From positions 44,178 through 108,177 of the forward strand of contig CALVMV010000004.1 in assembly GCA_944349375.1 (NCBI GenBank): 64,000 nt of DNA, written 5' to 3'. The notes beneath the pieces were generated by a model. The model saw only the letters and a program-made list of their open reading frames with translations. It did not search any database and was not told where the DNA came from. Positions 12,625 to 62,100 of the stretch are shown piece after piece. The translations under genes and the position numbers were made by a program. The stretch comes from an uncultured Clostridia bacterium (GTDB taxonomy: Bacteria > Bacillota > Clostridia > Christensenellales > UBA1242). Position 1 is the first letter of the stretch; each line of letters starts with the position of its first letter.

Positions 12625-13314
12625 TTACATTTCAAAATAATTTATTACGCCTGCTAGAATACTGTAACAAAAATTTTTTCTATATTCTTCTGTCTGTAAA
12701 AGTTTTTCTTCTTCAGGATTTGACAAAAATCCACATTCTACTAAAATAGCCGGAATGTTTGAATAATTTAAAACAAAATAATCCCCAACTGTTACATAAT
12801 CTCTAGCGCTTTCAAAACTTTTACTTAAACTATTTTGAATGCTTTTTGCAAGATTAAAGCCCTGCTCTGAACCTTTTGCATAAAAAACCTGTGCACCTTC
12901 ACTAGAAGACAAAGGAAAAGAATTCATATGCAAACTTATCACTAAATCAGCATTGCTATTATTTATAATGTTTTTTCTTTTTTCCATTTCACTTTTTTTC
13001 TTATTAGAAGCACTTTCATCATAAAGCCCATCCATTGTGCTTCTTGTTAAAACAACATCAAACCCAAATTGCTCACAAGCTTCTTTTAGGCATAGTGCAT
13101 ATTGTAAATTTAATACACTTTCACTAATCCCTGTAGTTTTCCCAACAGCCCCTCCATCTCGACCACCATGCCCCGCGTCAATGACAATAGAGTATTCTGG
13201 TTTTGGTGATGCTGTCGCCTTAACTGCAAAGCAAGCCCCCACCACCGAACAAATCAAAATTATACTTACTAAAATAACACACAACGTCCGCTTTTTTATT
13301 GTTAAGAATTTCAT
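12625..13314 (-). CDS. cwlD: N-acetylmuramoyl-L-alanine amidase, CwlD-like (Amidase_3), membrane-anchored
   Basis: N-terminal hydrophobic anchor, VIDAGHGGRDGGAVG, LVISLHMNS, and LVECGFLSNPEE. See the finding on the chimeric 5' end. Confidence 0.8.
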   Translation of the reverse strand: MKFLTIKKRTLCVILVSIILICSVVGACFAVKATASPKPEYSIVIDAGHGGRDGGAVGKTTGISESVLNLQYALCLKEACEQFGFDVVLTRSTMDGLYDESASNKKKSEMEKRKNIINNSNADLVISLHMNSFPLSSSEGAQVFYAKGSEQGFNLAKSIQNSLSKSFESARDYVTVGDYFVLNYSNIPAILVECGFLSNPEEEKLLQTEEYRKNFCYSILAGVINYFEM

Positions 13315-13437
13315 ATTGTATTTTATTAAACAAAAATTTTTTATATAACAAAATTAAAAAAAGATGTCACAAAATATTGAAAACTCAAAATTTCAATGTT
13401 AATCTCTTTTTGTTTAAAAAATAAAAGGAGAATTAAT

Positions 13438-14175
13438 ATGATATATAACGAACAACTTGATTCGCTTTTTTCTAATACAGAAAGCACAACTGATTATGAA
13501 GAAGAAAAGCGAAAAAAGAAACAAAAACTTGTGAGGAATGAATTTGTAAAATGTGGAAAATATGGAATGCCGCTAATCAAGAAACAAAATATAGATTTAA
13601 ATAAGATTGAGTTATTAAGTTATTTAAAAACAAAAAATGATGATGAAGAAAACAAAAATAAAACAATTCATTTTTTCACTTATGATTGGAATTTTGAAGC
13701 AGTCTATGAAAAACCCGAACAATCACTTGAAAAACTAGACCAATATTATGCTTTGCTTACTCCTGAATTTAGCACATATAAGGATATGCCACTTGCTAGA
13801 CAAATAGATAGTGTTTTCAAAAATCGATGGTGCGGTGCTTTTTGGCAAAAACAAGGTATGCTTGTAATTCCAACAATTTCATGGGGTTCATATGATTGCT
13901 TTGAATTCTTTTGCGATGGTGTTGAAGAAGGTTCAGTTGTGGCGGTATCAACCTACACAAGAGAAGATAACAAAAAAGGTTTTATGGAAGGCTATGAAAT
14001 TATGATGGAAAAAATTAAGCCAAGTGCAATTATCTGCTATGGAACACCTTTTGATGAAATGAAAGGAAATATTAAAGCAATCGACCCATATAACCGAGAA
14101 GAACTTATCAAAAAAATTGGATTAAGTGAGTTTACTAGAAAATATTTTGCTGGCGAACTTTATCCGGAAATATAG
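13438..14175 (+). CDS. DUF4417-like protein
   Basis: Pattern HFFTYDWNFE...LLTPEFSTYKDMPLARQIDSVFKNRWCGAFWQKQGMLVIPTISWG is recalled as the DUF4417 signature. Start set to the ATG at 13438 after AAAGGAG. Confidence 0.6.
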   Translation: MIYNEQLDSLFSNTESTTDYEEEKRKKKQKLVRNEFVKCGKYGMPLIKKQNIDLNKIELLSYLKTKNDDEENKNKTIHFFTYDWNFEAVYEKPEQSLEKLDQYYALLTPEFSTYKDMPLARQIDSVFKNRWCGAFWQKQGMLVIPTISWGSYDCFEFFCDGVEEGSVVAVSTYTREDNKKGFMEGYEIMMEKIKPSAIICYGTPFDEMKGNIKAIDPYNREELIKKIGLSEFTRKYFAGELYPEI

Positions 14176-14184
14176 GAGCAAATT

Positions 14185-15003
14185 ATGGAAGATTTAAAAC
14201 TAACTATAAACATGCTCCCAAAAGGAGCTTGGAACAACGATTTCAGCAAAACGCTATCTAAAAAAGATTGGGATAAACTCCGCGAATTTGCACTTAAAAG
14301 AACAAATGGAAAGTGTGAAATATGCGGTTATGAAACAAGCGACCTTGATGTTCATGAAGAATGGGAATTTGATATTGAAAAGAAAACGCAAACTTTAAAA
14401 CAAATTATTGCGATTTGTTCAAAGTGCCACGGAGTTAAACATTTCAAAAACTCTGTTAGACTTGGCTATGGCGAAGAAGCACAAGAGCATTTTATGAACG
14501 TTAACAATGCTTCGGAAATGGAATTTGCAAGTCATCTCAACAAGTCATTGCTTGAATATAATGAAAGAAATTCAGTTTATCGCTGGAAGATAGTCGCAGA
14601 TTTAGAAAAATTTGGCGGAAACGGAATAGAAATAAAGCAAAACAATATTCCCCTAATAAAAAATCCGTATGAAAGTGTGGAGTGGGACAAACTGTCATTT
14701 GATGACATGAAAAATTTGTTTGAAATAAAAAGAAATGAAAACTTGATAGGCTCTCCGAAAATTGTTTCTATTGATGTTGACAATTATCAAGGCATTATTC
14801 AAATCAAAGCATTATTTGCTGACAGGATTGAATGGTATTTAGATGAGAAAAAAATAAAAACAAACTATAATACCGCTGGTCTATTCACAACTGAACTGAA
14901 AGTAAAAAACTTAATCGGCAAGAATATAAAATTCAAACTTACTGGCATAGGTGGAGAAACAATCTCAAAATACTTTGAAATTTTGCCACAGGAGGTGTTA
15001 TAA
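14185..15003 (+). CDS. HNH-type nuclease-like protein with an uncharacterised C-terminal domain
   Basis: CEICG...LDVHEEW...ICSKCHGVKH follows the CxxC / D-x-H / CxxCH..H arrangement of HNH zinc fingers. Confidence 0.5.
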   Translation: MEDLKLTINMLPKGAWNNDFSKTLSKKDWDKLREFALKRTNGKCEICGYETSDLDVHEEWEFDIEKKTQTLKQIIAICSKCHGVKHFKNSVRLGYGEEAQEHFMNVNNASEMEFASHLNKSLLEYNERNSVYRWKIVADLEKFGGNGIEIKQNNIPLIKNPYESVEWDKLSFDDMKNLFEIKRNENLIGSPKIVSIDVDNYQGIIQIKALFADRIEWYLDEKKIKTNYNTAGLFTTELKVKNLIGKNIKFKLTGIGGETISKYFEILPQEVL

Positions 15004-15299
15004 TGGGTATGTGTAAACCAAGTGGCGGAATCAGTAAGCAAATAGGAAGAGTAGGTGATCTAAAAACCACTGGAGAACCAAACACTAGAAAAGATTTATA
15101 TAACGAAGATGGTAAACTCATACAGCAAAGATGGTATGGTTCAGATGGAAACGCGATTTGGGACCGGGATTGGTCTCATGGAGGTGGAGAACACGAATGG
15201 CCACATGATCATAGTTGGGATTGGACTAATCCGCAACACCCAGATAGACCTGCATATGAAGACGAATATGGGAATAAAACAAATTCTAGTTATTGTTAA
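15003..15299 (+). CDS. Small His/Trp/Asp-rich protein with YD-like dipeptide repeats (possible orphan toxin module)
   Basis: Its start overlaps the upstream stop (TAATG). Features include LYNEDGKLIQQRWYGSDGNAIWDRDW and HEWPHDHSWDW. No signal peptide. Confidence 0.45.
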   Translation: MGMCKPSGGISKQIGRVGDLKTTGEPNTRKDLYNEDGKLIQQRWYGSDGNAIWDRDWSHGGGEHEWPHDHSWDWTNPQHPDRPAYEDEYGNKTNSSYC

Positions 15300-15310
15300 A
15301 AGGAGATATT

Positions 15311-15778
15311 ATGAAAAACAAAAGTATTTACGATGAAATTTTTGATAAACCATGCTCAGTTTGTGGCAAGATTATTAAAAAAGATATTTATGATCAAGGT
15401 TCCTGTCCTTATTGTAAATGGAAAAATAACCATTTTGCCGAGATAAATCCAAATAATGTGTTGTATCCCAACCTAATCTCACTAAATAAAGCAAGAAAAT
15501 TATATAACGAAGGCAAGCCTTTTGAGCCTAATCTAGACGAATTTATGGAAGCTTTGCACAATTATAGCGAAACGCAATTTGAATATAAAGGAGTTTACTA
15601 TGCTGTTGAACTTGTTTTTAATAATAACAGCGAACCAAAAATCAGTCTTTATAATTCTCAAACAAAAGAAACAACATTTTTCAACAATGATGAAGATTTT
15701 ATAAACAATGCTAAAATTGATGGTAAACTTTTAAAAGATATATGGGAAGAAACAACTGATAGATATTGGTTACAATAA
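15311..15778 (+). CDS. CPCC-type zinc-ribbon protein, paralog 1 (immunity-like)
   Basis: CSVCG...CPYCKW followed by the NLISLNKARKLY... domain shared with the next two genes. The ATG at 15311 follows AAGGAG. Confidence 0.6.
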   Translation: MKNKSIYDEIFDKPCSVCGKIIKKDIYDQGSCPYCKWKNNHFAEINPNNVLYPNLISLNKARKLYNEGKPFEPNLDEFMEALHNYSETQFEYKGVYYAVELVFNNNSEPKISLYNSQTKETTFFNNDEDFINNAKIDGKLLKDIWEETTDRYWLQ

Positions 15779-15788
15779 CAGGGTAAAA

Positions 15789-16244
15789 ATGAAAAATAAA
15801 AATATATATGATAAAATATTTGAAAAAAAATGCAATGTTTGTGGAAAAACTCTACTTGCTAGCAAAACAGGAAATGGGGAATGTCCTCATTGTGGCTGGT
15901 ATAACAATAGACTTGGAGAAATTAACGAGAATATGGTAATTTTCCCCAACTTAGTTTCACTAAACAAAGCAAAAAAATTATATAAAGAAAATAGGCTTAT
16001 AAAGCCTGACTTAAATGACTTTCTTGAAGCATTCGAGTTTTATGGCGAAACAGGATTTGAATATAAAAACCTAATGTTCTGTCTATTTAGACATGGCGAC
16101 AATGGAATTGAAATGGGTTGGGGACCAAACGATGATGAAGTTGCATATTTCAAAGACAAGGAAGATTTTATCAAAAACGCAAAGATAGACAATGAATATG
16201 TCCGAGATATTTGGAATAAAGTTGAAAATCCTTGCTATTTATAA
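15789..16244 (+). CDS. CPCC-type zinc-ribbon protein, paralog 2 (immunity-like)
   Basis: CNVCG...CPHCGW plus the shared C-terminal domain. The last 65 nt are nearly identical to the 3' end of paralog 3. Confidence 0.6.
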   Translation: MKNKNIYDKIFEKKCNVCGKTLLASKTGNGECPHCGWYNNRLGEINENMVIFPNLVSLNKAKKLYKENRLIKPDLNDFLEAFEFYGETGFEYKNLMFCLFRHGDNGIEMGWGPNDDEVAYFKDKEDFIKNAKIDNEYVRDIWNKVENPCYL

Positions 16245-16292
16245 AAACTAAAAATGTTTGTTTGTGCGGAAAAAATATGATATAATTTAATT

Positions 16293-17315
16293 ATGAAAAG
16301 AACAGTCAAAAATTTAAACAATATATATGAACCTGTATTTAAAAATGTTGATAAGATGACAAAATTCCTAAGCAAGAATTGTGTTGACCATGCATTAGAT
16401 TTTCATTATGGGCACAGAATCAAAATTGGCAATCAATCTACAAACGAATTATACCCAATTCCACTTTTTCGCTTTAAACTGAAAGGAATAAAAACAGAGA
16501 CTTTTTTTGATGTCTATACGAACAAAAACTATATTGGCTATATCAAACTTTATCCAAACAAAGAAGAGATTTTATCTCTTAATTTGGAAGTTTTTGCAAA
16601 TCTCAAATATCTTATATATGGTTATAATTATCAACAAGAACTTTATAACTCTGAAGATTTAAAAGAAACAAAAAACAATATCGAAAAATCAAAAGATACA
16701 AAATTTATTATCTATGCCGACTTTAAAAATCTTGAACAAATTTTTAGTGTAATAGAAAGTCTTACAGAAAAACCAACTCAAAGATTTTCAATGGCAAACT
16801 ATAAATGCAACTGCGGACATTATGTAACAATTGAATCATACAACGGCACTTGCCCAGTTTGTGGAAGGGACGGCCCATTTAAAAGAAAATACAAAACAAA
16901 ATGCCCTGTGTGTAAAGCAAATTGTTTAAAAGACCAATATGGAAATGGTGAGTGTGAAAACTGTGGTTGGAAATTGGATAAATACGCACATAAATTTAAA
17001 AACAGAGTTGTTTATACAAACCTAATCTCATTAAATAAAGCGAAAAAATTATATAAAGAAAATAAACCTATGAAACCCGATTTAGACGATTTTCTTGAAG
17101 CGTTTGAACATTATAGTGAAACAGGATTTGAATATAAAAATGTTGGTTTTTCCTTATTTAGAAATGGCGAGAATGGCATTGAATTTAGTTGGGGTCCTGA
17201 GCCATGTGGCACAATATATTTCAAAGATAAAGAAGACTTTATTCAAAACGCCAAGATAGACAATGAATATGTCCGAGATATTTGGGAGAAAGTTGAAAAT
17301 CCTTGCTATTTATAA
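16293..17315 (+). CDS. CPCC-type zinc-ribbon protein, paralog 3, with an extra N-terminal domain of about 190 aa and additional Cys pairs
   Basis: The C-terminal 140 aa align with paralogs 1 and 2 (CENCGW...NLISLNKAKKLYKENKP...IDNEYVRDIWEKVENPCYL). Confidence 0.6.
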   Translation: MKRTVKNLNNIYEPVFKNVDKMTKFLSKNCVDHALDFHYGHRIKIGNQSTNELYPIPLFRFKLKGIKTETFFDVYTNKNYIGYIKLYPNKEEILSLNLEVFANLKYLIYGYNYQQELYNSEDLKETKNNIEKSKDTKFIIYADFKNLEQIFSVIESLTEKPTQRFSMANYKCNCGHYVTIESYNGTCPVCGRDGPFKRKYKTKCPVCKANCLKDQYGNGECENCGWKLDKYAHKFKNRVVYTNLISLNKAKKLYKENKPMKPDLDDFLEAFEHYSETGFEYKNVGFSLFRNGENGIEFSWGPEPCGTIYFKDKEDFIQNAKIDNEYVRDIWEKVENPCYL

Positions 17316-17326
17316 AATAAAAAATT

Positions 17327-17355
17327 AAGCATATCAACCGATATGCTTTTTTTTA
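17327..17355 (+). terminator. Intrinsic terminator of the cargo operon
   Basis: AAGCATATC (17327-17335) pairs with GATATGCTT (17340-17348), followed by a T-run. Confidence 0.7.
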
Positions 17356-17399
17356 CACTTATAAAATATGTGTCTTTTTTCTATTAAAATTTTAAAAAC

Positions 17400-17576
17400 T
17401 TACTGTCCTAACTTGACATCTACTCCGCCGTACCCAGCGTCAATCACAATGGTATGCACCGCCTTCGGCGAACTTGTCGCTTTAACCACATAGCAAACAC
17501 CGACAATTAAACAGATTGCAACTAGAACAACCAAAAGAATGGCACAATGCGTCTTTTTTATTGTTAAGAATTTCAT
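17400..17576 (-). pseudogene. Displaced cwlD 5' fragment 1 (58 codons)
   Basis: Translation MKFLTIKKRHCAILLVVLVAICLIVGVCYVVKATSSPKAVHTIVIDAGYGGVDVKLGQ*. It parallels intact CwlD up to GG-x-D and then diverges into the junction string. The Zn-ligand His is replaced by Tyr. Confidence 0.7.
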
Positions 17577-17609
17577 ATAATAACATATTTTTATTCTTCG
17601 TTTTTTATA

Positions 17610-17635
17610 ACAAAAAAGAGGATATTAATATCCCC
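17610..17635 (-). terminator. Intrinsic terminator after the minus-strand gene pair
   Basis: The minus strand reads GGGGATATTAATATCCTC followed by TTTTTTG. Confidence 0.55.
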
Positions 17636-17760
17636 AATTTTCTAACTTAAACCCTTTTGAATTTATTTCTCCATAATCACCATATAATTTAAAATGCACA
17701 CTTTTCCCATTTAACCCAACAACAGAAAAATCTGATTTTAGAATATGGGCAAAATTAAAC

Positions 17761-18192
17761 TCAGTTTTCGCTATTGTTGTCTTTTCTTTTTGATTCTTCC
17801 TGCTGTCTTTCTAATTCTCTTTTTCTCCTATTTTCTTCTGCTCTTTGCATCTTTATATCATAATCAGGATCTTTCGATCTATAATAATCTAAATTTACTT
17901 TTTTAAAATTTTCTTTGTAAAATTCTCTTGCTTTGTCAATTGCGTAAAATCTATTTTTAGAAAGATTTTTTAATATATCATCTTTGTTTTTCTCCCAAAA
18001 CTGCTTGTATTGATTCAAGCTCATATCGTTTGCCCCACCGCTAAAATTAGGATTCTCATTTTGCAAATCATCAGCTTCCCAGCCACAATATTCACATATA
18101 TCAAAATCATGTGCAATATTACCTAAGCCACATACCTTACATTTATTTTGTACTTGTTCGATTAATTTTTCATTTTCTACTACTCTACTCAT
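17761..18192 (-). CDS. Cysteine-rich CPCC domain protein (immunity-like)
   Basis: CKVCG...FDICEYCGWEADDLQNENPNFSGGANDMSLNQYKQ matches the recalled Cys_rich_CPCC pattern. The tail is K/E/R-rich. Confidence 0.6.
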   Translation of the reverse strand: MSRVVENEKLIEQVQNKCKVCGLGNIAHDFDICEYCGWEADDLQNENPNFSGGANDMSLNQYKQFWEKNKDDILKNLSKNRFYAIDKAREFYKENFKKVNLDYYRSKDPDYDIKMQRAEENRRKRELERQQEESKRKDNNSEN

Positions 18193-18204
18193 TATTTTCT
18201 CCTT

Positions 18205-18516
18205 TTATAACCATTCATATCCATATTCCAAAAATAAGTTCTCAAAATATTCCCCATCAGCTCTTGGTGGATAATATGTGATAATTTTACCATCTCTAGA
18301 AACCATCATAAATTCATTTGTACTTTCTCTATATCGATATATCGTTCCATCCTTAGTAGTAAATTTTCGAATATTAGAGTCCTTATCGTTAAAAAAATCA
18401 ACTGCTTTTTTAGAATATTTGTAGGGATAACCCTTTAACCCAAATTGTGTTGCATGTTTAACTTCATTTTCTGGCGATGTCCAATATTTAGCATATTCAC
18501 TCGGTGCTTTTTCCAT
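18205..18516 (-). CDS. Small hypothetical protein, possible orphan toxin C-terminal module
   Basis: 103 aa with no signal peptide, 12 nt upstream of the CPCC gene. It contains DGTIYRY...DGKIITYYPP motifs. No family named with confidence. Confidence 0.4.
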   Translation of the reverse strand: MEKAPSEYAKYWTSPENEVKHATQFGLKGYPYKYSKKAVDFFNDKDSNIRKFTTKDGTIYRYRESTNEFMMVSRDGKIITYYPPRADGEYFENLFLEYGYEWL

Positions 18517-18559
18517 TATATCATCTTTTCTCCCTGTTTTATATAAATTTTCGACTTTT

Positions 18560-18597
18560 AATAAAAAAGTTTGTAAAGAATCTTCTCACAAACTTTT
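18560..18597 (-). terminator. Hairpin terminator placed just inside the element junction
   Basis: AAAAGTTTGT (18565-18574) pairs with ACAAACTTTT (18588-18597). A T-run follows on the minus strand. Confidence 0.4.
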
Positions 18598-18643
18598 ATA
18601 GAAAAATATTAAGCCAGAAATTTTGCAAATTCAAGTTTATATA

Positions 18644-18826
18644 TCAAAAAATTTCATACTGTCCTAACTTGACATCAACTCCACCATGCCCTGCATCTAT
18701 TACTATTGTAAATTCTGCTTTTGGCATACTATTTGTGTAAACGCTGGCAAAAGAAAATAAAATTGACAGCCCTACAATAACAGAAATAATTATTAATACA
18801 CTTTTCTTTTTTATAATAAAAAACAT
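18644..18826 (-). pseudogene. Displaced cwlD 5' fragment 2 (probably the native 5' end)
   Basis: Translation MFFIIKKKSVLIIISVIVGLSILFSFASVYTNSMPKAEFTIVIDAGHGGVDVKLGQYEIF*. The break point and junction string are the same as in fragment 1. Confidence 0.7.
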
Positions 18827-18961
18827 TTCAACTCCTACTTAAATATTTTATTAGTGAAAATTAGAAAATAAGACAAAAATTGATATTAATTTAATTTTAA
18901 TAGTTCTTAATTTTTCAGAAAAAAATATTTTAAAAATGCTGTATTTTTAAAAAATGTTTAA

Positions 18962-50184: not shown

Positions 50185-53100
50185 ATGTCAAAGAAAATAA
50201 TTAAAAAATTATCAACTCTTGCTCTTGCAATTCTTAGTTTGGGAGTTGTTTTTTTGATGTTAGGATTGGTTAATTTAAATTCTAAGGCAGAAGAATCTTT
50301 ATCTGATAATTCTGTTAACTTTGATCAGTCAGAAGCTTGGGTTGATGAAATTGTATTAGGTGCGGCTTCAATTACAAATGAAAACCATTTTGGTAAAACT
50401 TGTATGGTTATTGATAGTGCTGAGGATTTAGCGCAGGTAGCATATGAAGTTTCGCAAGGGACAAACTCATCTTATACGAATGGTTATTTTTATTTGGCTC
50501 AGGATATTAATTTGCGAGGGAAGTTGTGGACTCCTATTGGAACGACAACCCATCCTTTTTCAGGGACTTTTTTCGGTAATGGATATAAAATTTCAAATGT
50601 TGTGATTTCTCAGGCATCCATAATTTCTGGCAACGATATTGGTTTGTTTGGTGCCGTTACTGGTTCTATTGTTGATTTAACTGTAGAAGGGGCGTTTGGT
50701 GTATCCTCATTAGTAGATTCTTCAACAAATAATATTGGACATATTGCAGGAAGTTTGCAAAGCTCGGGAGAAATTATAAACTGTTTTGATGAAATGATTG
50801 TTTCACTTCAAGATGGATTTAAATCTATTGGTAATACGGCTTCTTCGGCTAAAGTAATTTATCCTTCAAGCAAAAATGGTATCGAAGAAGGATTAACTAC
50901 CGTCGAAGATATGCAATCTAAAATATCTTTTAATGGAACTCCACAAACAGGATATTCAGTTTATTACAATACAAATGTAGCTGCAACTAGTGGCGATATA
51001 GAGGGAACTGGTGTAGGATTTTATCAAAATGGAAATTATATTTTTTCAGGAAATAAAGAAGAATCTCAACAAGTAAGAGTAGCTTTTGCAAATGTTTCTG
51101 AAGATACATATTCAAGTATTATTACTTTAAATAATCCTTTATATTTTTCTCAAACACCTTTACTTAGAGAATCTGCCGTTGGAAGCCAAGTTTATGTTTT
51201 AAGAACGGGTTACAAAGCAACATTTTCTGCGCCTTCATTAGAAAATAGTGGAATTGTAAACATTTCATGGAATCAAGCGACAGTCAATGTTTCTTACAAT
51301 TATGGCTATGGCTCAAGAACGGTGAATTTTGAAACTCCTTATGACAATCCTTGGACTAACGTAATTGCTACAAAAGAAATTGTAAGGCTTGGTTATCAAT
51401 CTAATACTTTATATAGTGAATCTTCAATGCAAACTCTTCTTAATACAACTGATAGAGCGAATTATGTTTCTTATTATGCAAAGAACGGAGATTGCGTTTA
51501 TATAAAATGGTCAGATCCAAAAAATTTGACAGGTAAATTATATGTTGGTGCAGACACTAACGAAGGTGGCTCTTTTAAAAATCCTTCTGCAAGCAATGCT
51601 TATTCAAATTTAAATGTTTCTGGTGCAGATGTTCTTAGTCAATCTTCAAATTATAGCGATCTTTCTAATATAATTGCTGGGCAAGATGTTGTTATCAATT
51701 TCTCATTAAATTCAGGTTATACATTCCAATTAGCAGGATTAGGAACAAACTTGCTTACAAAAAGTTCTTGGGACGGAACAGGGATTACTAATTTGACTAC
51801 TGGAGCTTATACATATTACCCTAATTCGACCGGAAAGGATAGCGACGGTCAAAGTTATATTATCGGTACAGATGGAGGATATTATGATGCATATACTCCT
51901 ATAGAAATTAAGGTGGAAAAATCAGATAGTAATTTCACTATTACAATTAAAAACATCGTTGATAACGGTGGAGAAATAGTTTTATTGTTCGGAAGAGAAC
52001 AGAAAGAAATATCTATTCAAGGAACAGGTTTGGATAGATTAAGCAGTGCCACTATAATTAATCACGAGGCGAGCCAAACTTCTTTAGATTGGGAAAGCAA
52101 AACAATAACTACCAAAATTGGGGAATCTTTTGATTTTGTTGTTTCATCAGTAGGGCAAGATTATTTTATCTTATCTAGATCGGTAAATGGTTTTGTTTGC
52201 GACAATATCATTGAAGAAGAAGAGACCCCTGTTGGAGAAAGTAAGTTTTATCAAAAAATTACATTTGAAATAAATGCCTTTTCTCCAGAACCAGCTGTAG
52301 AAGATTATTATATAACACTAAATATTAATAGATTATTAACTTATATAAAAGTTCAAATCGGTGAAGAAGGAAAATTTTTTGATAATGTTGCAGAAAACAG
52401 AAAGGCGACTGTTTCTGTTTCAAGTTCGGGAATAGAAAGTATGTCAACTAATAGTCAAGTTACATTACAGGTCCCTATGACAACAAACACGACTATTACT
52501 TTTAATGCAAATGGATTTTATTCTTTAGCTTCTGTGGACGGAGTAAGTGTTCCTTTTGAAAACAATGCTATATCTCAAACTTTTTCAAAATTTTCTAATG
52601 ATCCTTCAGCTCCAGCTTATATCATAACATTTAATCCAACAAAGAATTATTATAATTTAAACATAGTTTATATGATAGATGGGATAGAAGTTTCTAAAGA
52701 AATCGCTGAAAAATTTGTAAAATTTAATGGAAAAACTTCAAGCTTAGACTTTGAACAAACAGAAAATTACTCTTTAAAACTCACAGAATCAGCGAAAACA
52801 TGGTTAAAATATGATTTTTCTATCCAAGCTAGCGATTTAGGAAACAATTCAACAGGATATCAAGCTTCTGTATTAGAAGGGGCAAGTTCTGGTCTGTTAA
52901 ATGCTTCTTTCGATTCTGAAAACGCAACAAGTTCTTTTAATTACAAACCAGGAACTTTTAATTCAACTTTAACTATTAATTTGTCGAGAAAAGAAATTAA
53001 TGTAAACTTTAATAACTTAACACTAAATGATGATAAAACAATTCTTCCAGATTCTAGTTCTCTTTATGGGAGTATGACTTTAAAATATGATTATAACGGA

Positions 53101-56100
53101 ACAGGATCTTTAAACATTACAGGAGGTGGATTCAGTTCTATTTCAATTGAAAATGGATACTATCTTGTTGGGTGGTATTTGACTGGTGGAAAAACAATTA
53201 CTGCATTTTCAAATAACGACCTTATACAAGATGTAGAATTCAGGAATTTTATATCACAGTCAGCATCTGGTAATAAAAATTCTCCTATAACAGTTTCGGT
53301 TAGTCCACTGGTTGAAAAGAGAGTAGTTAGATTATCTTATAGTGCTAATGGTGAAGGTGAACAACAAGGAGTAAGTTCAGATGATTTAATAACTGCTCCA
53401 GAATATGTTTATGGAAGTGCTCCAATTGCTTTAAGCACTGAAAAATTTAAGAAAATCGGTTATAGATTTAATAGTTGGTCAACAGAATTTGGAACAATTT
53501 CCGATAATCAATACTCTTTGACAGGTAATGCATGGAATACATTGTGGGAAAATAGTGCAGGGCAGTCTAAACATTCTTGGACAAGTTTTGCAAGTTCTGA
53601 TGAAGAAAAATATAAAGATGTTATTTTAACAGCACAATTTGAAGCTTTAGTTTATACTATTTCAGTAGATTCGTTATCAGAAATCAATATTTCAATAGGA
53701 CAAACAATCAATTTTGTTGCCGCTGGCAATGGAGAATATGCAACTTATACAAATAACGAGACACAAGCCACAGTAACAGGTTCATCACTTGCAGGTTACA
53801 CTGCAATATCTTTTGTGATAAAAGGGAACATTACACCTGAAGTTACTGAAAATAGTTTAACAAGTTTTGTGTTAAGCTTGGATAATATTAAAAAATTTAT
53901 TTCTGTAGAGAATTATTATTCAGTATCAGAAACTGCAGAGTTGACAATTAATACAGAAAGAGAAGCGAATACTTACAAAATTTATATTCAATCAAACTCT
54001 AACAAATATTATACTGTTTCTTTAGCTGAAGGGACTACAGCAGAACAAGGTGGAATTGATGCAACAGGAACTTATGTCCTTGTAAAATATAATGAGCTAC
54101 CTGCCAACTTAGATAAAGTTTCAGTAGTGCGTAATGGTTACAATCATGTTGGTTTTACTTATAACTCAACAGATTTTGATGCGTCACAAAAATACACTAT
54201 AACAAGCGATATTACAATAATTCCTAAATTTGAGAGAGATGAAAAAAGTGATTTTGTTAAAAATCAAATTGTTTTAACTGAAAGTGATGTTTTTAAAACC
54301 CAAAACAAGGTTACTGGAAAAAACTATGAATTTTATTTAGTAAATGGAACTACAGAAACAATTATTAGTGCAAACAATATAAGCAATTTTGGAAATGGGG
54401 ACATTGTAAGCGAACAACTTTTTAAAAGCAAAAATTCGGAAGTAAGTAGAATTGGCAGAGACATATCATTTGATTATATTATTAATAAAGTTATGGAAGG
54501 GATCCTTGACGGGACAAATATTGAACTTCAATATGTTGTTACAATAATAGATTCGTTATCCGGTGAGACTTATGATTTAACATATGATGTTCATGCTTTC
54601 TCAATCTTGCCTAATGAAATCGTTTTTGAAAATTTATCTTTAAAAACATATTATACAGGAACTAGCGATTATCTTGCTACTGAAGATTCTAATTTTGGAA
54701 ATGTTTTAGATTTCAAATACGATTTAAATGGAGAAGTTCTTTTAAAAGAGGAACAAAACACTGAATTAATTAATGACTTTATCAACACAAATCAATATCA
54801 GGTGAATGTGTCTGGAGATGATTATAATGTTGGAACAAAAAATGTTAGGATTATTTTCAATGGAACAGATGTCGGAAATAACGTGGAATATATTTGGTCA
54901 AATGTTAAATCAGAATCTAAAGATAGTTTCTATGTTGATATTGAAAATGGAATTGAAATAGTTGAGAGTCCTGCTGTTATTACTTTTGATTCTAGCACAG
55001 GTATTTATGTTGAAGGGCTTGTTCAAACTATTGCGCAAAATGTTTCTAATCAAACTTTTAATGTTTTATCAAATCCTAAATATCAATTTACTTATTCTTT
55101 TGACAGCTTAACATTAAAAAATAATGCTGTAGGAACATACACAGGTTCAGAAGACCATACTTTAGATCAAGAAAAATTTGAAGTAACGAATTTTGTAGTT
55201 AAAAATGGTCAAGAAGTGGTAACTGGCAACTTTGAATGGGTTATCTCTAAAAACTCTACATATCAAGTTGTAGGTGGTGAAGGTTTTAATGCCGTTGAAT
55301 ATAGATATGAACCTAGGTATTTTACAGCTTCTAATGGTTCGTTAACAGGTATTACAGAAGGTTGGGGTGAACTTGGAAGAGAAAACATTTTCACTATTTC
55401 GGAATTGATGTTTGACGGTGTAAAAGTAAAACCAAACAATGGCGCAAATTTTGCATCACAATATAACCACATAGTTGATGGACAGATTTATTTTACTATT
55501 ATTGGAAATAATTCTTCAAAACTTGTTATTAAGTTAAACAATGATTTGATTGGTGGTCATACAATAACATTTAACATAACTGTAAGTGATGCACTTGAAG
55601 AAGGGCTTGTATTGTATAGCTGGCAAAATAATTTTGATATTGATGACTCTATCTTTGGTTCAATTGTTGCGACAAAGACTATTGATTTTGAATATGGCAC
55701 TACAACAGAAGGTAGCCATTATGCAATTTATACAAACGCAACAAAGGTAAATGTTGACTATAATTTGTCAGGCATTAAAAATGAAACTATTTATGTTGCA
55801 TATGGAGAAAATTACGATTTAAGCAACCCTATAGACAGTACAAGCGAATTAACTTTCAATGGATACCAATTAACAGGAAGTGGGCTTTCTATTGCAGATA
55901 GTGAAGGCAAAAAAGTTTTAAGCAACACAAATTCTGGTAGTTTGGCAAGCTTAAAAGCAAAATGGACTCTTTCAAATGTTTCTGTGTCGCAATTAGAAAC
56001 AGAATTTACAATTTCTCCTTTAGGAGTTGCTCCTACTAATGATTTTGATTTTACTACTATCTTTAGTACTTCTCCACAAAGAGCAAGTTTATCTTCTGAT

Positions 56101-59100
56101 CCATACACTGTAGTTAAAGTTGTGGCAGAAGGTGAAGATGTTGCCCTTGTTTTAAAAGGAAACAAAGCAACATTGCCTTATGTTGATAGTGAGTCTCAAT
56201 TAATAAATGTAGCTTCTAACCAAGGAGAATATAAGATTTCAATTACTTTTGCTTATAATGATAGTTTTGAAACTTCGTATTTTACAAAAGAAATTACATT
56301 TACTATCAATGTTGTAAAAGATGAATTAACAATAAATAATTTAAATACTCTTAATGGTTCTTTAACTTTTGCTAACATTGATTACGCCGATACATTCAAA
56401 GTAGGATATTCTTTAACAAGTCGATCATTCTCTGAAGAAACAACAACTCCTATAGAAAAAACAATTTCTCAATTATCAGATAATGCAATTTTCAATCCAG
56501 AGGAAATTGTTCAAAAAGATTGGGAAAATCAAACTAACTACTTCAATGTGTCTATCACTACTCCATATTCTGCAAATGATATGTATTATGCGGGAGAGTA
56601 TAGTTTTGACTTTGCTCTTTGGGATATTTGGAGTGGCTATATTTCGATAAAAGCAAATACTGACACATCTTTAACTCAAACTGTAAATATTGCAAAATAT
56701 ACAATCAATCTTGCTAAATATAATAACGACATTAGTACAGGTAAACTTTTAGGATTGAATGATCCAGATGTAATATCTGATACAATCACTATTACAGAAA
56801 CAAACAATGATGAAGTTGTTATAACATTTAGTGGCAGAGAAAATGAAGATGTCGATGTCGTTGGTAGTTATAAATTGCTTATTAATAAAGAGAGTGCTTT
56901 AAGTGAAGAAGATAAGAAAAATTATGATTTAAATATTGATGGTTTTGAAGCATACTTTGTTATAGCTAAAAACGAAAATGGTCAAGTAGTTGTAACTTTA
57001 CCTAATGGTTTCCACATGACTTACAATGGAAGCGAAATAAATTCTTTTGAAGTTGCTGTTGTAGATGGAAAATTTGTTTTAAAAGCAATGTCTTCTACAG
57101 AAGCGAAACAAACTATAGACTTGCAGGTTAAAATCTTGGTTGGAGATCAGCAATATGATGTAGCACAAAGCGCTATGGAAACATTAGCAGGTATGATAAA
57201 GATTGCGTTTGCAAGTGATCCTTTTGCTAAAGATTATAAAGAAGGCGGTTACTTATTAAATGCTAGTTTAAGTGGTGATGCTACGGGAGATTTTAAATTT
57301 ATTGCATTTGGCGAAACATCTGATAGCAAGTTCTATATTGACAAAGCCCCTATCACTTTAAAACAAGTTGAAAAGACTTTTGATAAAACAACTGATTTTA
57401 CAAAAGAAACGGTTAGATCATTCAATGGAGCTATTGGTGATGAAGTTTTAGATATAGAAGGAAGATTTGCTTCAGCTCATGCAGGCAGTCAATCTCTTGA
57501 AAGCCTGTCTATTACTGGAAATACTAGTCAAAACTACTATATTGAAAATGCAGATTTTAAAGGAACTATTTTAGCAAAAGCAGTTTCATCTGTAACTATT
57601 GAAATAGGAAAAGATGAATTTGTTTATGGTCAAATTTCACAAAGAATAACGCTTGAACAGTTGCTCGAAATGTTTGGAACTGTTACTGTGAATATTGATG
57701 GAGATATTTTAACAATAGGTTCTAACGAGTTTGTTGATATTCAAGATTTTACAATAGAAAATGCTAAATATTCTACAGCTAAAAAATTGTCAGCAAATCA
57801 AGATGGTTATAATTTCTTCTTAACATTATCATCTACTGATTACACTGGGCTCAATGGAGCAGAAGGCAAAGGACAATCGGTAAATGTTGTTATAAATCAA
57901 AAAGTTTTAGATTTGTCAGCAACTGAAATTTCTAAGGTTTATGATGGAACAACAAAATTGCCTATAGATATTGATTGGGTTGGTTTTGAAGATGTTGAAA
58001 GTGGAGATGTTGTAAGCGTTGATACTTCTTTATCTCAATTTGTAAGCAAAGACAAAGGAACAGATATTGCAATTAATATTGTCTTTACAGGTGCTGATGC
58101 TTCTAACTATAGAGAAAAAGGTTCTGTAGTTGGAGACATAACTACTGTAAGAATAACCTTGAAAGTTAATGTAACCGATAACTTACCAAATGATAATGAT
58201 GGAAGCGAAGGTTTCATTGATGGAGATAAAGAAATAATCAATAGCGGCTTAGAGATTGTTATAAATTATCCATTTGATGAAGGACAAGACTTGCAATCTA
58301 TTATTGATTCTTGGGCAAAACCTTCAAGAGTTGGTTACAATGTTACAGGTTATAGTTATAAAACTGAAAGTGGCTCTTTTGAAAAGTTGACTGAAACAAA
58401 CTTGCCTGATTTCTTAGAAAAAATTGCTGTAGCTGAAGGCGAAAAATCAGCTTACATTTATCCTAATTGGGAAAGACAATCATTTACTGTTACTATAAGT
58501 GGAAATAATATTGCAAGTTTGGATAGTTTAGAAGGATTATCATCTGGGGTAGGTGATATAACTTCAGGATCTATAACTTATAATATCGGTTATTATGAAA
58601 GTTTCAGTTTTACAGTTAAGACAAAACAAGGATATAAAGTTTCTGAATTTGTTATTTCTAACACTTATGTTTCAAAAGAAGAAGGAGAGAAAGGAACAAA
58701 CTCTTGCTCTCTTGCTATTACCAATGTAACAGGTAATACAACTATTGAGATTAAAACAGTTTCAATAACTATTTCATTTGTTATAGACAAAAACATTCCT
58801 GTTGTGGAAGGGGTGAATATTGTTGAAACTTCTTCTGACACATGGACTAACAAAACAATCAATTATTCCGAAATTTTAGATGATCAAAAACTAGTTGATT
58901 TCTTACCTAAATTTACTGTTACTGATTGGACTTTTGATTTGGTAGGATTCAAAAACGGTGAAAATTTAGTTAATGTCGATAGTGAAAAATTGTTGAAAGC
59001 ATATATTGATGCAAATATTGATTATGCTACAGATGCAATTATTAATTTGACTGCACAATGGCAAGGTCAAACATATACAATTCATTTTGATGCAAACGGT

Positions 59101-62100
59101 GGAAGAATAAGTGATAATTATGATGCAACAGCAGTTTTTGGAGGAAAGATAACTTTACCTGAAGACAAATCTGATTTCCCTGTTGCAGTTATGGAAGGAA
59201 AGGTTTCTTCTTACTATGATGCTTTGCAAGATGGCAAGCCATATACTAAAGACACAACATTTACTACAATTGGCGCAAATAACGAAGTAACATTCTATGC
59301 TATTTGGTCAGATGGTATATTTGATATTACATTTGATATTGACAGTAAAGTAACTGTAAAACTCGATGGAAATCCTTTACAAAACACAACAAAACAAATT
59401 TCTTACAGCGAAACTTGGACTTTTGAAATATCTTCAAATGAAGGTTATTCATTCAAAGTAGATTTATCAGATTTCCACGGCAGTTCAAGTTCTGAAACTC
59501 AATCACCTTTTACAATTAATAATGTTATTGCTGATTCGACTATCAAATTTGTTGCTGTTCCAAAAGAAAATACTTTGACTATAACTTACGATAGTTTGCA
59601 TATTGAAAGCGTTGTTGTAGATGAAGTAGAGTATTCTGAGCCAGTTAAAAAATTGACAGGAACAGAAGTAACTATTGTTGTAACTGCTAAAGAAGGATAT
59701 GAATTTGATAACAGCAGTGCATCATTAATTGGAAATAGCACAGGTAAAATCGACAAAGTATTAAGCGAAGAAAATACAGTTTTAACATTAACTTGGAAAG
59801 ATTTTACTACAGATGGAACTATTTCTTTAAGTGCTAAACCAAAGAGTATAAATGTTTCTTGGGAAAAACTATCTAGTTATGCATCTGATATATCAATAAA
59901 CAATCAAAGTTTAACTTTAGATGATGGTTCATTCTCTACTAGAGTAGGACAAGAATTGTCAGTAACAATTACTCTTAAATATGGTTATGAAAATGCAAGT
60001 CTTACAAGTCAAAATGCAACTATTGAAAATGAAAATAATTCTAGTTTAGATTCTAATAAAATAATAACATACACTGCGACAATTAAAGGCTTTACTCAAG
60101 ATTTTGTTATTTCTTTGACAGCTGATGCTAGAAAATGGACTGTTTCTGTTTCTGTTGCCGATTATGGAGAAGAAAACAGAGGGCAAGCACAAATTTCTCC
60201 AAGTGGAGAGAGCAATTTAGTATTCGGTTCTTCTGTAACGCTCACTGCTAGTGCAAGTTCGGTAGCTTATAGATTTATTGGCTGGTATCAAGGAGATGTT
60301 TTATATAATGAAAATGCTTCATTTGTTATAGATGCAAATATTGATAATAAATCATTACTAGAAAGTGGAAATCTTAATTTTGAAGCCAGATTCGATTACA
60401 ATGCTGTAGATTTAACTTTCTCTTCTGGCGTAAATGGGAAACTTGAAGTAAGAGTAAACAATGGACTTCCTTTTGTTGTAGAAGAAGGAACTTCACAAAC
60501 AAAAACAGTATTTGTAAGTGATAAAGTTGTAATTGTTTTCTTCCCTAATTCCGGTTATGAGTTAGACACTTTTAAAGCCGATGAAGACGATAAAACTTCA
60601 GATATCAGTGGAAATTCTTATACTTTTGATGTCGTGGCTAATAGCTATTCTTCATTTAGTGCAACTTTCAAAGCAAGTGAAGTTTATGTAGATGTTAAAG
60701 TTGCTGTGCAAGTTAACTTTGTAAACTATGAAGGTCTTGAAGATGGTGGCAAACTTTATCTTGTAGATAATTTAGGAACTATTCTTGAGGAAGGATATTT
60801 ACAACCTTCTAGTGGAGACTTGATAGAAGGTATAAACTACAAAGTTTTAACTTATACTGATCAAAGTTTCTATTTGATGGCTGAATCTAACCCAGGATAT
60901 AGTTTCTCCTTAGATGTTAAATCTGGCTTTGCTTCTATTGATCAAATAACTCTTTCTAATGGAAAAACTATCTACAAAGTTTCAAATGCACAAGACTTGT
61001 CTTCTCTTATGGGTATCTTTAAAGCAGAAGAACAACGAGTTGAAATTATGTTCGTGACCGATGAAGAATCATCGACAATAGCTGCTGCAGGAAAAATTCA
61101 ATTAACAAATAACACTGTACCAGCTAATGCAAGTGGAAACAACTCGGAACACCTTACTATAGTTACTATAACTGGTGCTAATATTGAGTTAGCTATTTCG
61201 ACTAATTTCTACTATAAGTTAATTAGTGATGAAGATGGAAATGTTTCTGTAGTTGTAACAGGTTCTCAATCTGGATTTGAATTTAGTAAAGGAATTGTTC
61301 AAGAAATAGATGCAGAAGAAACAATGCTCACTGGATTTACTTACACTTCTACATTGTCTTTAACAGGCGTAAATTCAAATATAACAATTAAAATATTAGT
61401 AGAACCTATTTCTTACAATTTGAAATTCTTTATAGATGAAGATGACAGTGGCGTTTATGATCCTATTACTATCAACAATTTGATTTATGGTCAAAATATA
61501 GATTTATCTTCGCTTACATCAGAAGAGCGTAATAGGCTAACAAAAAGCAGAGATGGCTTTACGCTTATGGGCTATTACACAAAACAACTAATGCAAGGAA
61601 CTCAATATTTAGATAGTCAGTTAATGGCTACAAACATTTGGCTTGAAAAACCTTACATCTTTGATGGATCTAAGTATAAAGAAAATTCTAATTTTGATGC
61701 AGAAACCAAAACATTTACTTTATATGCAGGTTGGTCTTACGATAAAGCAAAGGTTACTGTGGACTTTATCCCTGATGCTTTAAAAGATTTGTTAACAGAA
61801 GTGTCTATTTCTGATATCATTACAAACATCAATCAAACAATTTCTTGGGTTAGCCCAGACAATGTTTGGGTTGGAGAATTTTCTGTAGCTTCTCCTTTAA
61901 CACTTGAACTTTCAGCTTTCGTATCTGATGGATACCAATTCGCTTATTGGGTTGTTGAAAATGAAGATAAGACAATTGAATATACAAATGCTAAGTTGTC
62001 TTTAACAGAAATGAACAAAGGGGATTATACTATTACAGCAATTTATTATCCTAAATATTCGATAACTATTGAAAGTAATAATACAACCGACCCTAGTCTT

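Follow-up and report, generated by a model that had tools for sequence, protein, structure and literature searches.

Tandem recombinase-less cassettes in a clostridial cwlD-like gene, at the probable attachment site of an integrative and conjugative element family with serine recombinases

The accretion of cis-mobilizable elements (CIMEs) with integrative and conjugative elements (ICEs), as in the tandem arrays of the ICESt1/ICESt3 type in streptococci, has been reviewed (PMC5704250). According to the same review, integrative and mobilizable elements (IMEs) with serine recombinases usually disrupt their target gene, and the recombinases TndX and TnpX integrate and excise without a directionality factor. 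Arrays of the staphylococcal cassette chromosome (SCC) include units without recombinase genes (PsiSCC; 10.1101/336396). Here we describe a cwlD-like amidase gene in a 64-kb stretch of DNA from an uncultured Clostridia bacterium (contig CALVMV010000004.1); the whole stretch, referred to below as the window, comes from a metagenome scaffold of 124 kb (ENA ERZ28614971). The gene is accompanied by 5.5 kb of inserted DNA, which we are fairly confident is a tandem array of two recombinase-less cassettes at the attachment site of an ICE family encoding large serine recombinases (LSRs). We think the array is best read as cassettes of a CIME-like or SCC-like kind that occupy the attachment site of an ICE. 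As in CIME/ICE accretion, elements that lack a recombinase and keep both attachment sites are found in tandem with an ICE at a chromosomal target, an incoming element would enter the attachment site beside the target gene, and composites could move together. As in SCC at rlmH/orfX of staphylococci (CcrAB/CcrC), the system involves a pair of LSR genes, the target gene appears to stay functional, and multi-unit arrays, some of their units recombinase-less, occupy one site inside a conserved gene.

The insertion, the empty site and the exchange of 5' ends

The protein encoded by the intact gene (Table 1) matches the Pfam family Amidase_3 over residues 43-224 (E 9e-47). Its best NCBIfam family is the CwlD equivalog TIGR02883 (E 2e-53), but the score of 181.2 bits is below the curated cut-off of 221.55 bits, and cwlD-like is therefore the safe name. 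Two genes downstream is the sporulation gene spoIIE, and spo0A is close by as well. A first-pass annotation of the window had described two same-strand copies of the 5' part of this gene in addition to the intact copy, and our listing of open reading frames (ORFs) agrees. Pairwise blastp bears out that both copies are homologous to cwlD: fragment 1 is 58% identical to the intact N-terminus over 53 aa (E 6e-21) and fragment 2 is 43% identical over 51 aa (E 5e-12), which by this measure is well above chance. The 20-nt string common to both fragments, TACTGTCCTAACTTGACATC, was found at exactly two places in the 64 kb of the window, also when three mismatches were allowed; by chance, about 0.01 occurrences are expected. 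A repeat finder detected three copies of the cwlD 5' segment (13163-13206, 17425-17468, and 18681-18724), which are in register and lie 4262 and 1256 nt apart.

When fragment 2 was joined to the present 3' part of the gene and used as a query, the best protein match (P0121) was 99% identical over its full length. The contig that encodes it, L008, is conspecific and has the same flanks, with an SH3-like gene on one side and gmk/spoIIE/tilS on the other; nothing intervenes between cwlD and these neighbours, so that L008 represents the unoccupied site. The window aligns to this contig at 98% identity up to position 18681 and again from 13206 (the 3' part of the gene is 97.6% identical from 13206 downwards), and the inserted DNA is therefore 13163-18680. 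These 5518 bp comprise cassettes of 4262 bp and 1256 bp, with an ambiguity of 5 nt at the core. Judged by the empty site and its flanking genes, fragment 2 is the native cwlD 5' end, as the first-pass annotation had proposed. Its further proposal of a nested integration by related elements was not right as to the arrangement: the two cassettes lie in tandem, by accretion, and have only their ends and Cys_rich_CPCC-type cargo in common. The order of the two insertions is not derivable from this structure, and arrival as a pre-formed composite is possible.

Other members of the species carry other occupants at this site. A single-insertion allele, which the first-pass annotation had recommended looking for, is found in L043, where the native fragment is followed by one DUF4417/HNH/CPCC cassette and an intact cwlD. 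This locus is 91% identical overall to the window across 4.3 kb spanning the cassette and adjacent host genes, and is therefore an independent acquisition rather than an intermediate. A third conspecific locus, L007, has the native fragment, a 2.3-kb cassette with radical SAM and ATP-grasp genes, and a cwlD starting MKVLTLKK.... Within one species, the site is thus empty (L008), occupied by one cassette (L043), by a different cassette (L007), or by two (the window). In further loci, L045 has a single-gene cassette with the same junctions, the outer cassette of the window (a 103-aa ORF plus CPCC143) is 93% identical at the cwlD site in L021, and it recurs at 81% identity in L039, where it lies beside the gene and a CPCC340-type cassette is distal, the reverse of the order in the window. 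Relatives of the inner cassette occupy the same site in L004/L036, L043, L033, L019, and L011, and its left end is near-identical over at least 60 nt in six other species-representative genomes. By these comparisons, the cassettes are discrete units.

The exchange also affects the gene itself. Proteins with C-terminal parts that are at least 95% identical carry up to six types of N-terminus, and the type found in the window is also present on the C-terminal part of another species; the first ~51 codons therefore travel with the inserted DNA. This agrees with the earlier proposal that the present 5' end and fragment 1 are element-borne. On the strength of these alignments the gene is chimeric, with its promoter and codons 1 to ~51 (hereafter the mimic) supplied by the element and the remainder native. 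A promoter-like motif, GTTATA-N15-TAATAAAATA, ends 4 nt before the ATG of mobile 5' ends and is conserved in this position in many loci, with copies in the window at 13319-13349 and 17581-17611; no Shine-Dalgarno sequence accompanies it. Because of this spacing and the lack of a Shine-Dalgarno sequence, the mobile 5' ends are suggested to give leaderless or near-leaderless mRNA. The region upstream of the native gene (18827-18870) contains CTAATAAAATA, a similar -10-like motif, followed by an AGGAG Shine-Dalgarno sequence, and fragment 2 keeps both this upstream region and the Shine-Dalgarno sequence.

Three same-strand copies of a short segment within 6 kb of a metagenome scaffold might also be produced by local tandem duplication, gene conversion of the cwlD 5' region, or chimeric assembly. 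We regard this explanation, of which tandem duplication had been named as an alternative in the first-pass annotation, as practically negligible. The copies are only 66-77% identical in DNA, the segments between them are unrelated to each other and to host DNA, an empty site exists, and the cassettes are found separately at cwlD in other species and assemblies. The exact CwlD protein of the window is also present on five contigs.

Crossover core, foreign arm and distribution of the junctions

The first-pass annotation had reported that both fragments leave cwlD at the same point and continue into the same foreign sequence. The break is the same in both, but it lies directly after the second Gly codon of the DAGHGG block, within a core GGYGG, and not after the GG-x-D codons. 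The empty site reads CAT GGT GGT CGA GAT GGA and the intact chimera of L007, for example, CAC GGT GGT CGA GAT GGA, while the displaced fragments read CAT GGT GGA GTW GAT GTC AAG .... What looks like "x-D" in the fragments (GTW GAT) is already part of the foreign arm, and its likeness to the native CGA GAT is coincidental. At the gene-side junction, the mobile 5' arm is joined to the native 3' arm with the crossover within these 5 nt, and the crossover dinucleotide may be either GG of GGYGG; the core is GGCGG at 17425-17429 in fragment 1 and GGTGG at 18681-18685 in fragment 2.

The foreign sequence is common to both fragments as claimed, but the conserved arm extends over ~24 nt rather than 20 (AGTAGATGTCAAGTTAGGACAGTA in the inner cassette, AGTTGATGTCAAGTTAGGACAGTA in the outer). 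Across genomes, it varies at the first three positions only. The 20-24 nt beside the core are near-invariant in 34 junctions, a set partly chosen with an 18-mer from the arm, and a protein-based search gives the same conservation. Past the arm, the sequences split into several classes. The partner sites are identical over GGYGG only, and the 5' arms are conserved chiefly at codon positions 1 and 2, a pattern that coding constraint would yield. Identity confined to GGYGG together with a conserved non-coding arm of 20-24 nt would fit the site of a large serine recombinase, for which a 2-bp crossover between half-sites of ~20-25 bp that bind the recombinase is characteristic. An inverted repeat around the core, TTGAC-21 nt-GTCAA, is one base off perfect dyad symmetry; we gave it no weight. 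Variant foreign arms, CGAGATTTCAAGTTAGGGCGGTA (giving ...GGRDFKLGR) and GTGGATGTCAAGATAGGGCAGTG, were seen in L026, L030, and L035 and in P0020, P0024, P0033, P0084, and P0093; a related recombinase may use these as diverged attachment sites, or the sites may be decaying.

Junctions of this kind are widespread. A profile built from the two fragments retrieved 132 short ORFs (55-96 aa) from metagenomes, which end in ...TIVIDAGHGGVDVKLGQ and vary in their N-termini and tails. An exact scan for the 18-mer in one genome per species gave 27 stretches, 24 of which are cwlD junctions in ~21 genomes, the other three being chance matches in unrelated coding sequences. By this count, the string is not the common repeat that, according to the first-pass annotation, would speak against its model. 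Nearly all of the junction genomes bear the label uncultured Clostridia; the labels Catabacter and Lachnospiraceae occur once each. Arrays with at least three junctions before the intact gene or the ICE occur in L035 (8 kb) and L053 (19 kb), and on an 18,813-nt contig that holds P0008, P0009, and P0254, so the stacking in the window is not exceptional. A scan of viral contigs for the 20-mer gave no match and thus no reason to regard the elements as phages represented in IMG/VR.

Once displaced, the 5' ends appear to decay. Of 117 fragment clusters, 12 have an altered DAGHGG motif, compared with one of 233 full-length proteins, which suggests relaxed constraint on the fragments; the change of the Zn-ligand His to Tyr in fragment 1, already read as decay in the first-pass annotation, is one of four such cases among the fragment clusters.

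Serine recombinases of the associated elements and a possible mechanism

No recombinase was found among the cassette ORFs of at least 98 aa in Pfam, PHROGs, and NCBIfam scans, as the first-pass annotation had noted; these scans detected no recombination or transfer genes of the cassettes' own, in keeping with CIMEs. The same annotation had suggested a genome-wide search for a recombinase with similar junctions, and a candidate that may act in trans was found on an ICE in other hosts. In L003/L036, L028, L053, and L055, the 24-nt arm lies ~40-50 nt from the stop codon of a 545-aa LSR (LSR1) with Resolvase, Recombinase, and Zn_ribbon_recom domains. It is followed by a second LSR of 573 aa (LSR2) with the same domains, which is 36% identical to the first. 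In L003/L036, the array consists of a fragment, a DUF4417/HNH/CPCC cassette, a second fragment, and then the LSR pair; in L053, from the same study as the window, the pair lies behind three cassettes; and L028, a metagenome-assembled genome labelled Catabacter, has an LSR1 that is 100% identical. Among 120 fragment clusters, 17 have a tail that reads antisense into the LSR1 gene. The best solved-structure match of the LSR1 catalytic domain is TnpX (E 9e-24), the NCBIfam matches of the LSRs to XisF, CcrA, CcrB, and CcrC are far under their cut-offs, although the three Ccr families rank among the best matches, and tblastn of LSR1 against known phages and plasmids gave relatives at 35% identity or less only.

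The element that carries the LSR pair also encodes a primase, methyltransferases, a type IV secretion system (T4SS) pilin (PF18895, E 1.5e-7), and an 873-aa VirB4-like ATPase with P-loop_TraG/AAA_10/DUF87 domains. As T4SS genes accompany the two LSRs, we consider it an ICE of more than 20 kb; neither a relaxase nor a coupling protein was seen in the >20 kb that were read. Its left end has the same 24-nt arm and core as the cassettes. Between at least three different hosts, the ICE is 98-99% identical, with the identity starting at the junction and unrelated sequences to its left, which indicates that the LSR-bearing ICE spread recently.

From these observations, we propose the following mechanism. 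The attachment site would lie inside cwlD, with the crossover within the Gly-Gly codons (GGYGG) of the DAGHGG motif. Each unit, whether ICE or cassette, would consist of the 24-nt arm, usually followed by a terminator-like hairpin, then cargo, and then a promoter-like motif with the ~51-codon mimic. Integration would join the resident 5' part to the incoming arm and the incoming mimic to the native 3' part, so that cwlD stays whole while the displaced 5' end decays as a short ORF. Because mimics and native 5' arms share one consensus, the gene-side junction would again resemble the target, and further units could therefore be added there, beside the gene. Cassettes and ICE stand in one array in L036 and L053; in both, the ICE is the rightmost unit of the sequence read, which stops short of the intact gene, and its position gene-ward of all cassettes would fit gene-side addition. 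The ICE recombinases presumably make the cassette junctions, and the cassettes may move in cis as parts of ICE composites or be excised in trans by the ICE recombinase. Loss of the ICE by homologous recombination between mimics could leave cassettes behind.

Several points weigh against this proposal. The activity of the cassettes is read from population polymorphism only, no excised circle or attP form was seen, and a tblastn search of the 64-kb window with both LSRs found no recombinase. The only pair of sites that canonical LSRs recombine is attP and attB, so for serial integration the junction between mimic and native 3' part would also have to serve as a target. For the ICE, an end in a cwlD mimic beside an intact gene is extrapolated from its left end and >20 kb only. 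The cassette cargo (HNH, DUF4417, CPCC) has no counterpart in the 20 kb of ICE read, and this part of the ICE gives no support to an origin of the cassettes by ICE decay. Finally, L004 and L036 share 98.5% identity over the cassette and the promoter and for another ~26 nt into the mimic, beyond which they diverge (at ~7651 in L004 and ~10027 in L036); because the divergence lies inside the mimic, homologous recombination between mimics also acts, and it could explain part of the pattern. This case would fit the idea that two directly repeated mimics recombined, whereby an ICE was lost and the cassette stayed.

The same case lends some weight to another explanation, namely that the cassettes are immobile scars of larger elements that were deleted later, for instance by recombination between repeated mimics, and that they have spread only vertically or as passengers in composites and are never excised alone. 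In keeping with this, the cassettes carry no recombinase, the divergence of L004 and L036 points to homologous recombination, as it lies inside the mimic and not at the core, junctions are decayed in L038-L040 and L028, and motif mutations accumulate in displaced fragments. However, the same cassette classes, with near-identical 60-nt left ends, occur in 6-7 species-representative genomes, they are not arranged in the same order in all genomes, both of their limits fall on the GGYGG core, and their cargo is unrelated to the ICE sequence read. We therefore consider scars an unlikely explanation, if one to be taken seriously.

A different possibility is that the insertion is a skin-like element, excised during sporulation to restore the native cwlD. 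The first-pass annotation had mentioned such developmental excision as a speculation, encouraged by the role of cwlD in sporulation and germination, and there is ample published evidence that LSRs excise elements from sporulation genes (SPbeta/spsM, skin, gin in gerE, yin in yabG). We find no support for it here. The gene is already intact, with 229 aa, a complete Amidase_3 domain, and its own promoter-like motif, so that excision is not needed; there is no recombinase in the cassettes or the 64-kb window, and the decay of displaced native fragments would not be tolerable if they were reused. All of this makes a skin-like element very improbable indeed.

Within the reading of a tandem array at an ICE attachment site, a stronger form would make cwlD a cassette platform of the integron or SCC kind, at which serine recombinases encoded by the ICE capture and release cassettes singly in trans. 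We put this forward only tentatively and lean towards doubting it. If it is true, a portable promoter and N-terminal "exon" repairs the gene and recreates the target, the array grows and shuffles, and species continually exchange the promoter of a sporulation enzyme together with its membrane anchor.

Cassette cargo and comparison with known systems

The features of the locus are collected in Table 1. The DUF4417 protein also matches phrog_940, annotated "nuclease" (E 2e-51), while the domain has been described merely as phage-enriched and without known function. The HNH endonuclease-like protein weakly matches the HNH region of IscB. For the 98-aa ORF, no match was found in PDB or Pfam, and PDB sequence searches were uninformative for the 98-aa, 103-aa, and DUF4417 proteins. 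The tandem CPCC paralogues have a common C-terminal module (internal repeats D1-D3, 71-90% identity), and the conspecific L043 is without the 340-aa copy. PADLOC gave no defence-system match for any cargo protein. We considered the pairs of small ORF and CPCC gene as toxin-immunity modules but do not claim this, as weak PHROG matches are the sole basis. The radical SAM (349 aa) and ATP-grasp_3 (316 aa) cassette, present in L007 (10250-12250) and L053 (6521-8521), may be a peptide-modification or defence module. The hairpin that the first-pass annotation had placed just inside the outer junction does fold and is followed by a T-run, but it fails a stricter terminator scan on account of few G-C pairs and a long loop; this stretch is conserved past the junction in L021 and L034. 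Elsewhere in the window (50185-63465, plus strand), a 4426-aa ORF, whose sole match is a weak one to Flg_new_2 / InlB B-repeat at residues 3158-3205, probably encodes a giant surface protein.

Table 1. Features of the cwlD-like locus in the window (window positions, except for the last row).
Feature	Position	Strand	Remarks
Intact cwlD-like amidase gene	12625..13314	(-)	229 aa; chimeric (see text)
Core GGTGG of gene-side junction (Gly-Gly codons)	13163..13167	(-)	Comparison of empty, single- and double-cassette alleles
Inner cassette	13163..17424		4262 bp; no recombinase; limits from repeat spacing
Right end of inner cassette	13168..13349	(-)	Replacement cwlD 5' coding part 13168-13314 and promoter-like motif
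DUF4417 protein, 259 aa	13396..14175	(+)	PF14386, E 3e-51; divergent from cwlD
HNH endonuclease-like protein, 272 aa	14185..15003	(+)	phrog_5200 HNH endonuclease, E 1e-27
98-aa ORF	15003..15299	(+)	Weak match to C-terminus of a PHROG "toxin" family, E 1e-3
Three paralogous Cys_rich_CPCC genes, 161/151/340 aa	15293..17315	(+)	PF14206, E ~1e-6 to 4e-7
Bidirectional terminator-like hairpin, inside inner cassette end	17327..17348		-12 kcal/mol, z -4.4
Foreign arm (P' arm), inner cassette	17401..17424	(-)	AGTAGATGTCAAGTTAGGACAGTA
Fragment 1	17576-17400	(-)	58 aa; displaced 5' end carried by outer cassette
Outer cassette	17425..18680		1256 bp; no recombinase; limits from repeat spacing
Cys_rich_CPCC protein, 143 aa	17761..18192	(-)	PF14206, E 8e-10
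103-aa ORF	18205..18516	(-)	No Pfam match; weak PHROG match; best PDB E-value 0.32 (not significant)
Hairpin and T-run, inside outer junction	18565..18597	(-)	-12.1 kcal/mol, z -2.95
Foreign arm (P' arm), outer cassette	18657..18680	(-)	AGTTGATGTCAAGTTAGGACAGTA
Fragment 2	18826-18644	(-)	60 aa; displaced native cwlD 5' end
LSR gene pair	L036 10224-13575 (10224-11861; 11854-13575)		Also in L028, L053, L055

The HNH-like and DUF4417 genes form a conserved pair beside the mobile cwlD 5' end in at least seven genomes (window 13396-15003, L004, L036, L043, L033, L019, L011, and L021, with DUF4417 inverted in L021). Homing endonucleases typically target conserved catalytic-site codons, and the pair itself might accordingly drive the insertion, as a homing-type element that would cleave the DAGHGG codons of cwlD and be copied in through repair. 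An HNH-like gene (phrog_5200) and a DUF4417 gene of the "nuclease" PHROG do adjoin the mobile 5' end in the window, the same pair has the same position in L004/L036 and L043, and the region aligns to L033, L019, and L011. However, the outer cassette, the radical SAM/ATP-grasp cassette of L007, and the single-gene cassette of L045 have the same junctions without HNH or DUF4417, and the ICE has the same 24-nt arm with LSR genes beside it. Repair would also replace the resident 5' end and not leave a displaced fragment. We thus think it very unlikely that the pair is responsible, and retain the reading of recombinase-less cassettes at an ICE attachment site.

This reading has several consequences. 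It would provide a natural serine-recombinase system with delimited chromosomal, element, and empty sites, which could serve genome engineering of uncultured gut Clostridia and recombinase mining, and it would represent a serine-recombinase element that repairs its own target, unlike the usual gene disruption. The cwlD gene would be a hot spot for variable cargo, including HNH/DUF4417, small-ORF plus CPCC, and radical SAM plus ATP-grasp pairs, and ~130 clusters of unannotated short ORFs ending in ...DAGHGGVDVKLGQ would be explained as attachment-site scars. The locus also documents that a conserved enzyme can have its N-terminal part exchanged horizontally. Our literature searches found no paper linking cwlD to site-specific integration, and a looser search returned known intervening-element papers only.

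The likeness of the cwlD units to CIME/ICE accretion and to SCC has its limits. CIME/ICE accretion involves tyrosine integrases and the 3' ends of genes or tRNAs, whereas the cwlD units are associated with LSRs, have their site within coding sequence near the 5' end, and carry a promoter and ~51 codons. SCC replaces the last 3' codons of its target and needs no promoter, it is not an ICE, and its sequence relatedness to the elements described here is low. Unlike the serine-recombinase IMEs that have been reviewed, the cwlD elements repair their target gene. The elements skin in sigK, SPbeta in spsM, gin in gerE, and yin in yabG are likewise found in Firmicutes, use serine recombinases, and target a sporulation gene; in contrast to cwlD, which is kept intact while its old 5' end is abandoned, the genes that they enter are split, and the element must excise in the mother cell. 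Elements of the Tn4451/Tn5397 type (TnpX/TndX) also have clostridial LSRs, and TnpX is the closest solved structure to the LSR1 catalytic domain. The reversibility of TndX/TnpX without a directionality factor would suit a reversible exchange of cassettes, but the cwlD ICE differs from Tn4451/Tn5397 in its strict specificity for cwlD, its two recombinase genes, and the replacement gene end that it carries, and its LSR1 is at most 35% identical to any phage or plasmid record. What sets the present case apart from these systems is the combination: serine recombinases of an ICE, a target within the codons of the catalytic motif, towards the 5' end of a gene for a sporulation amidase, repair of this gene by a portable promoter with ~51 codons, and arrays of recombinase-less units.

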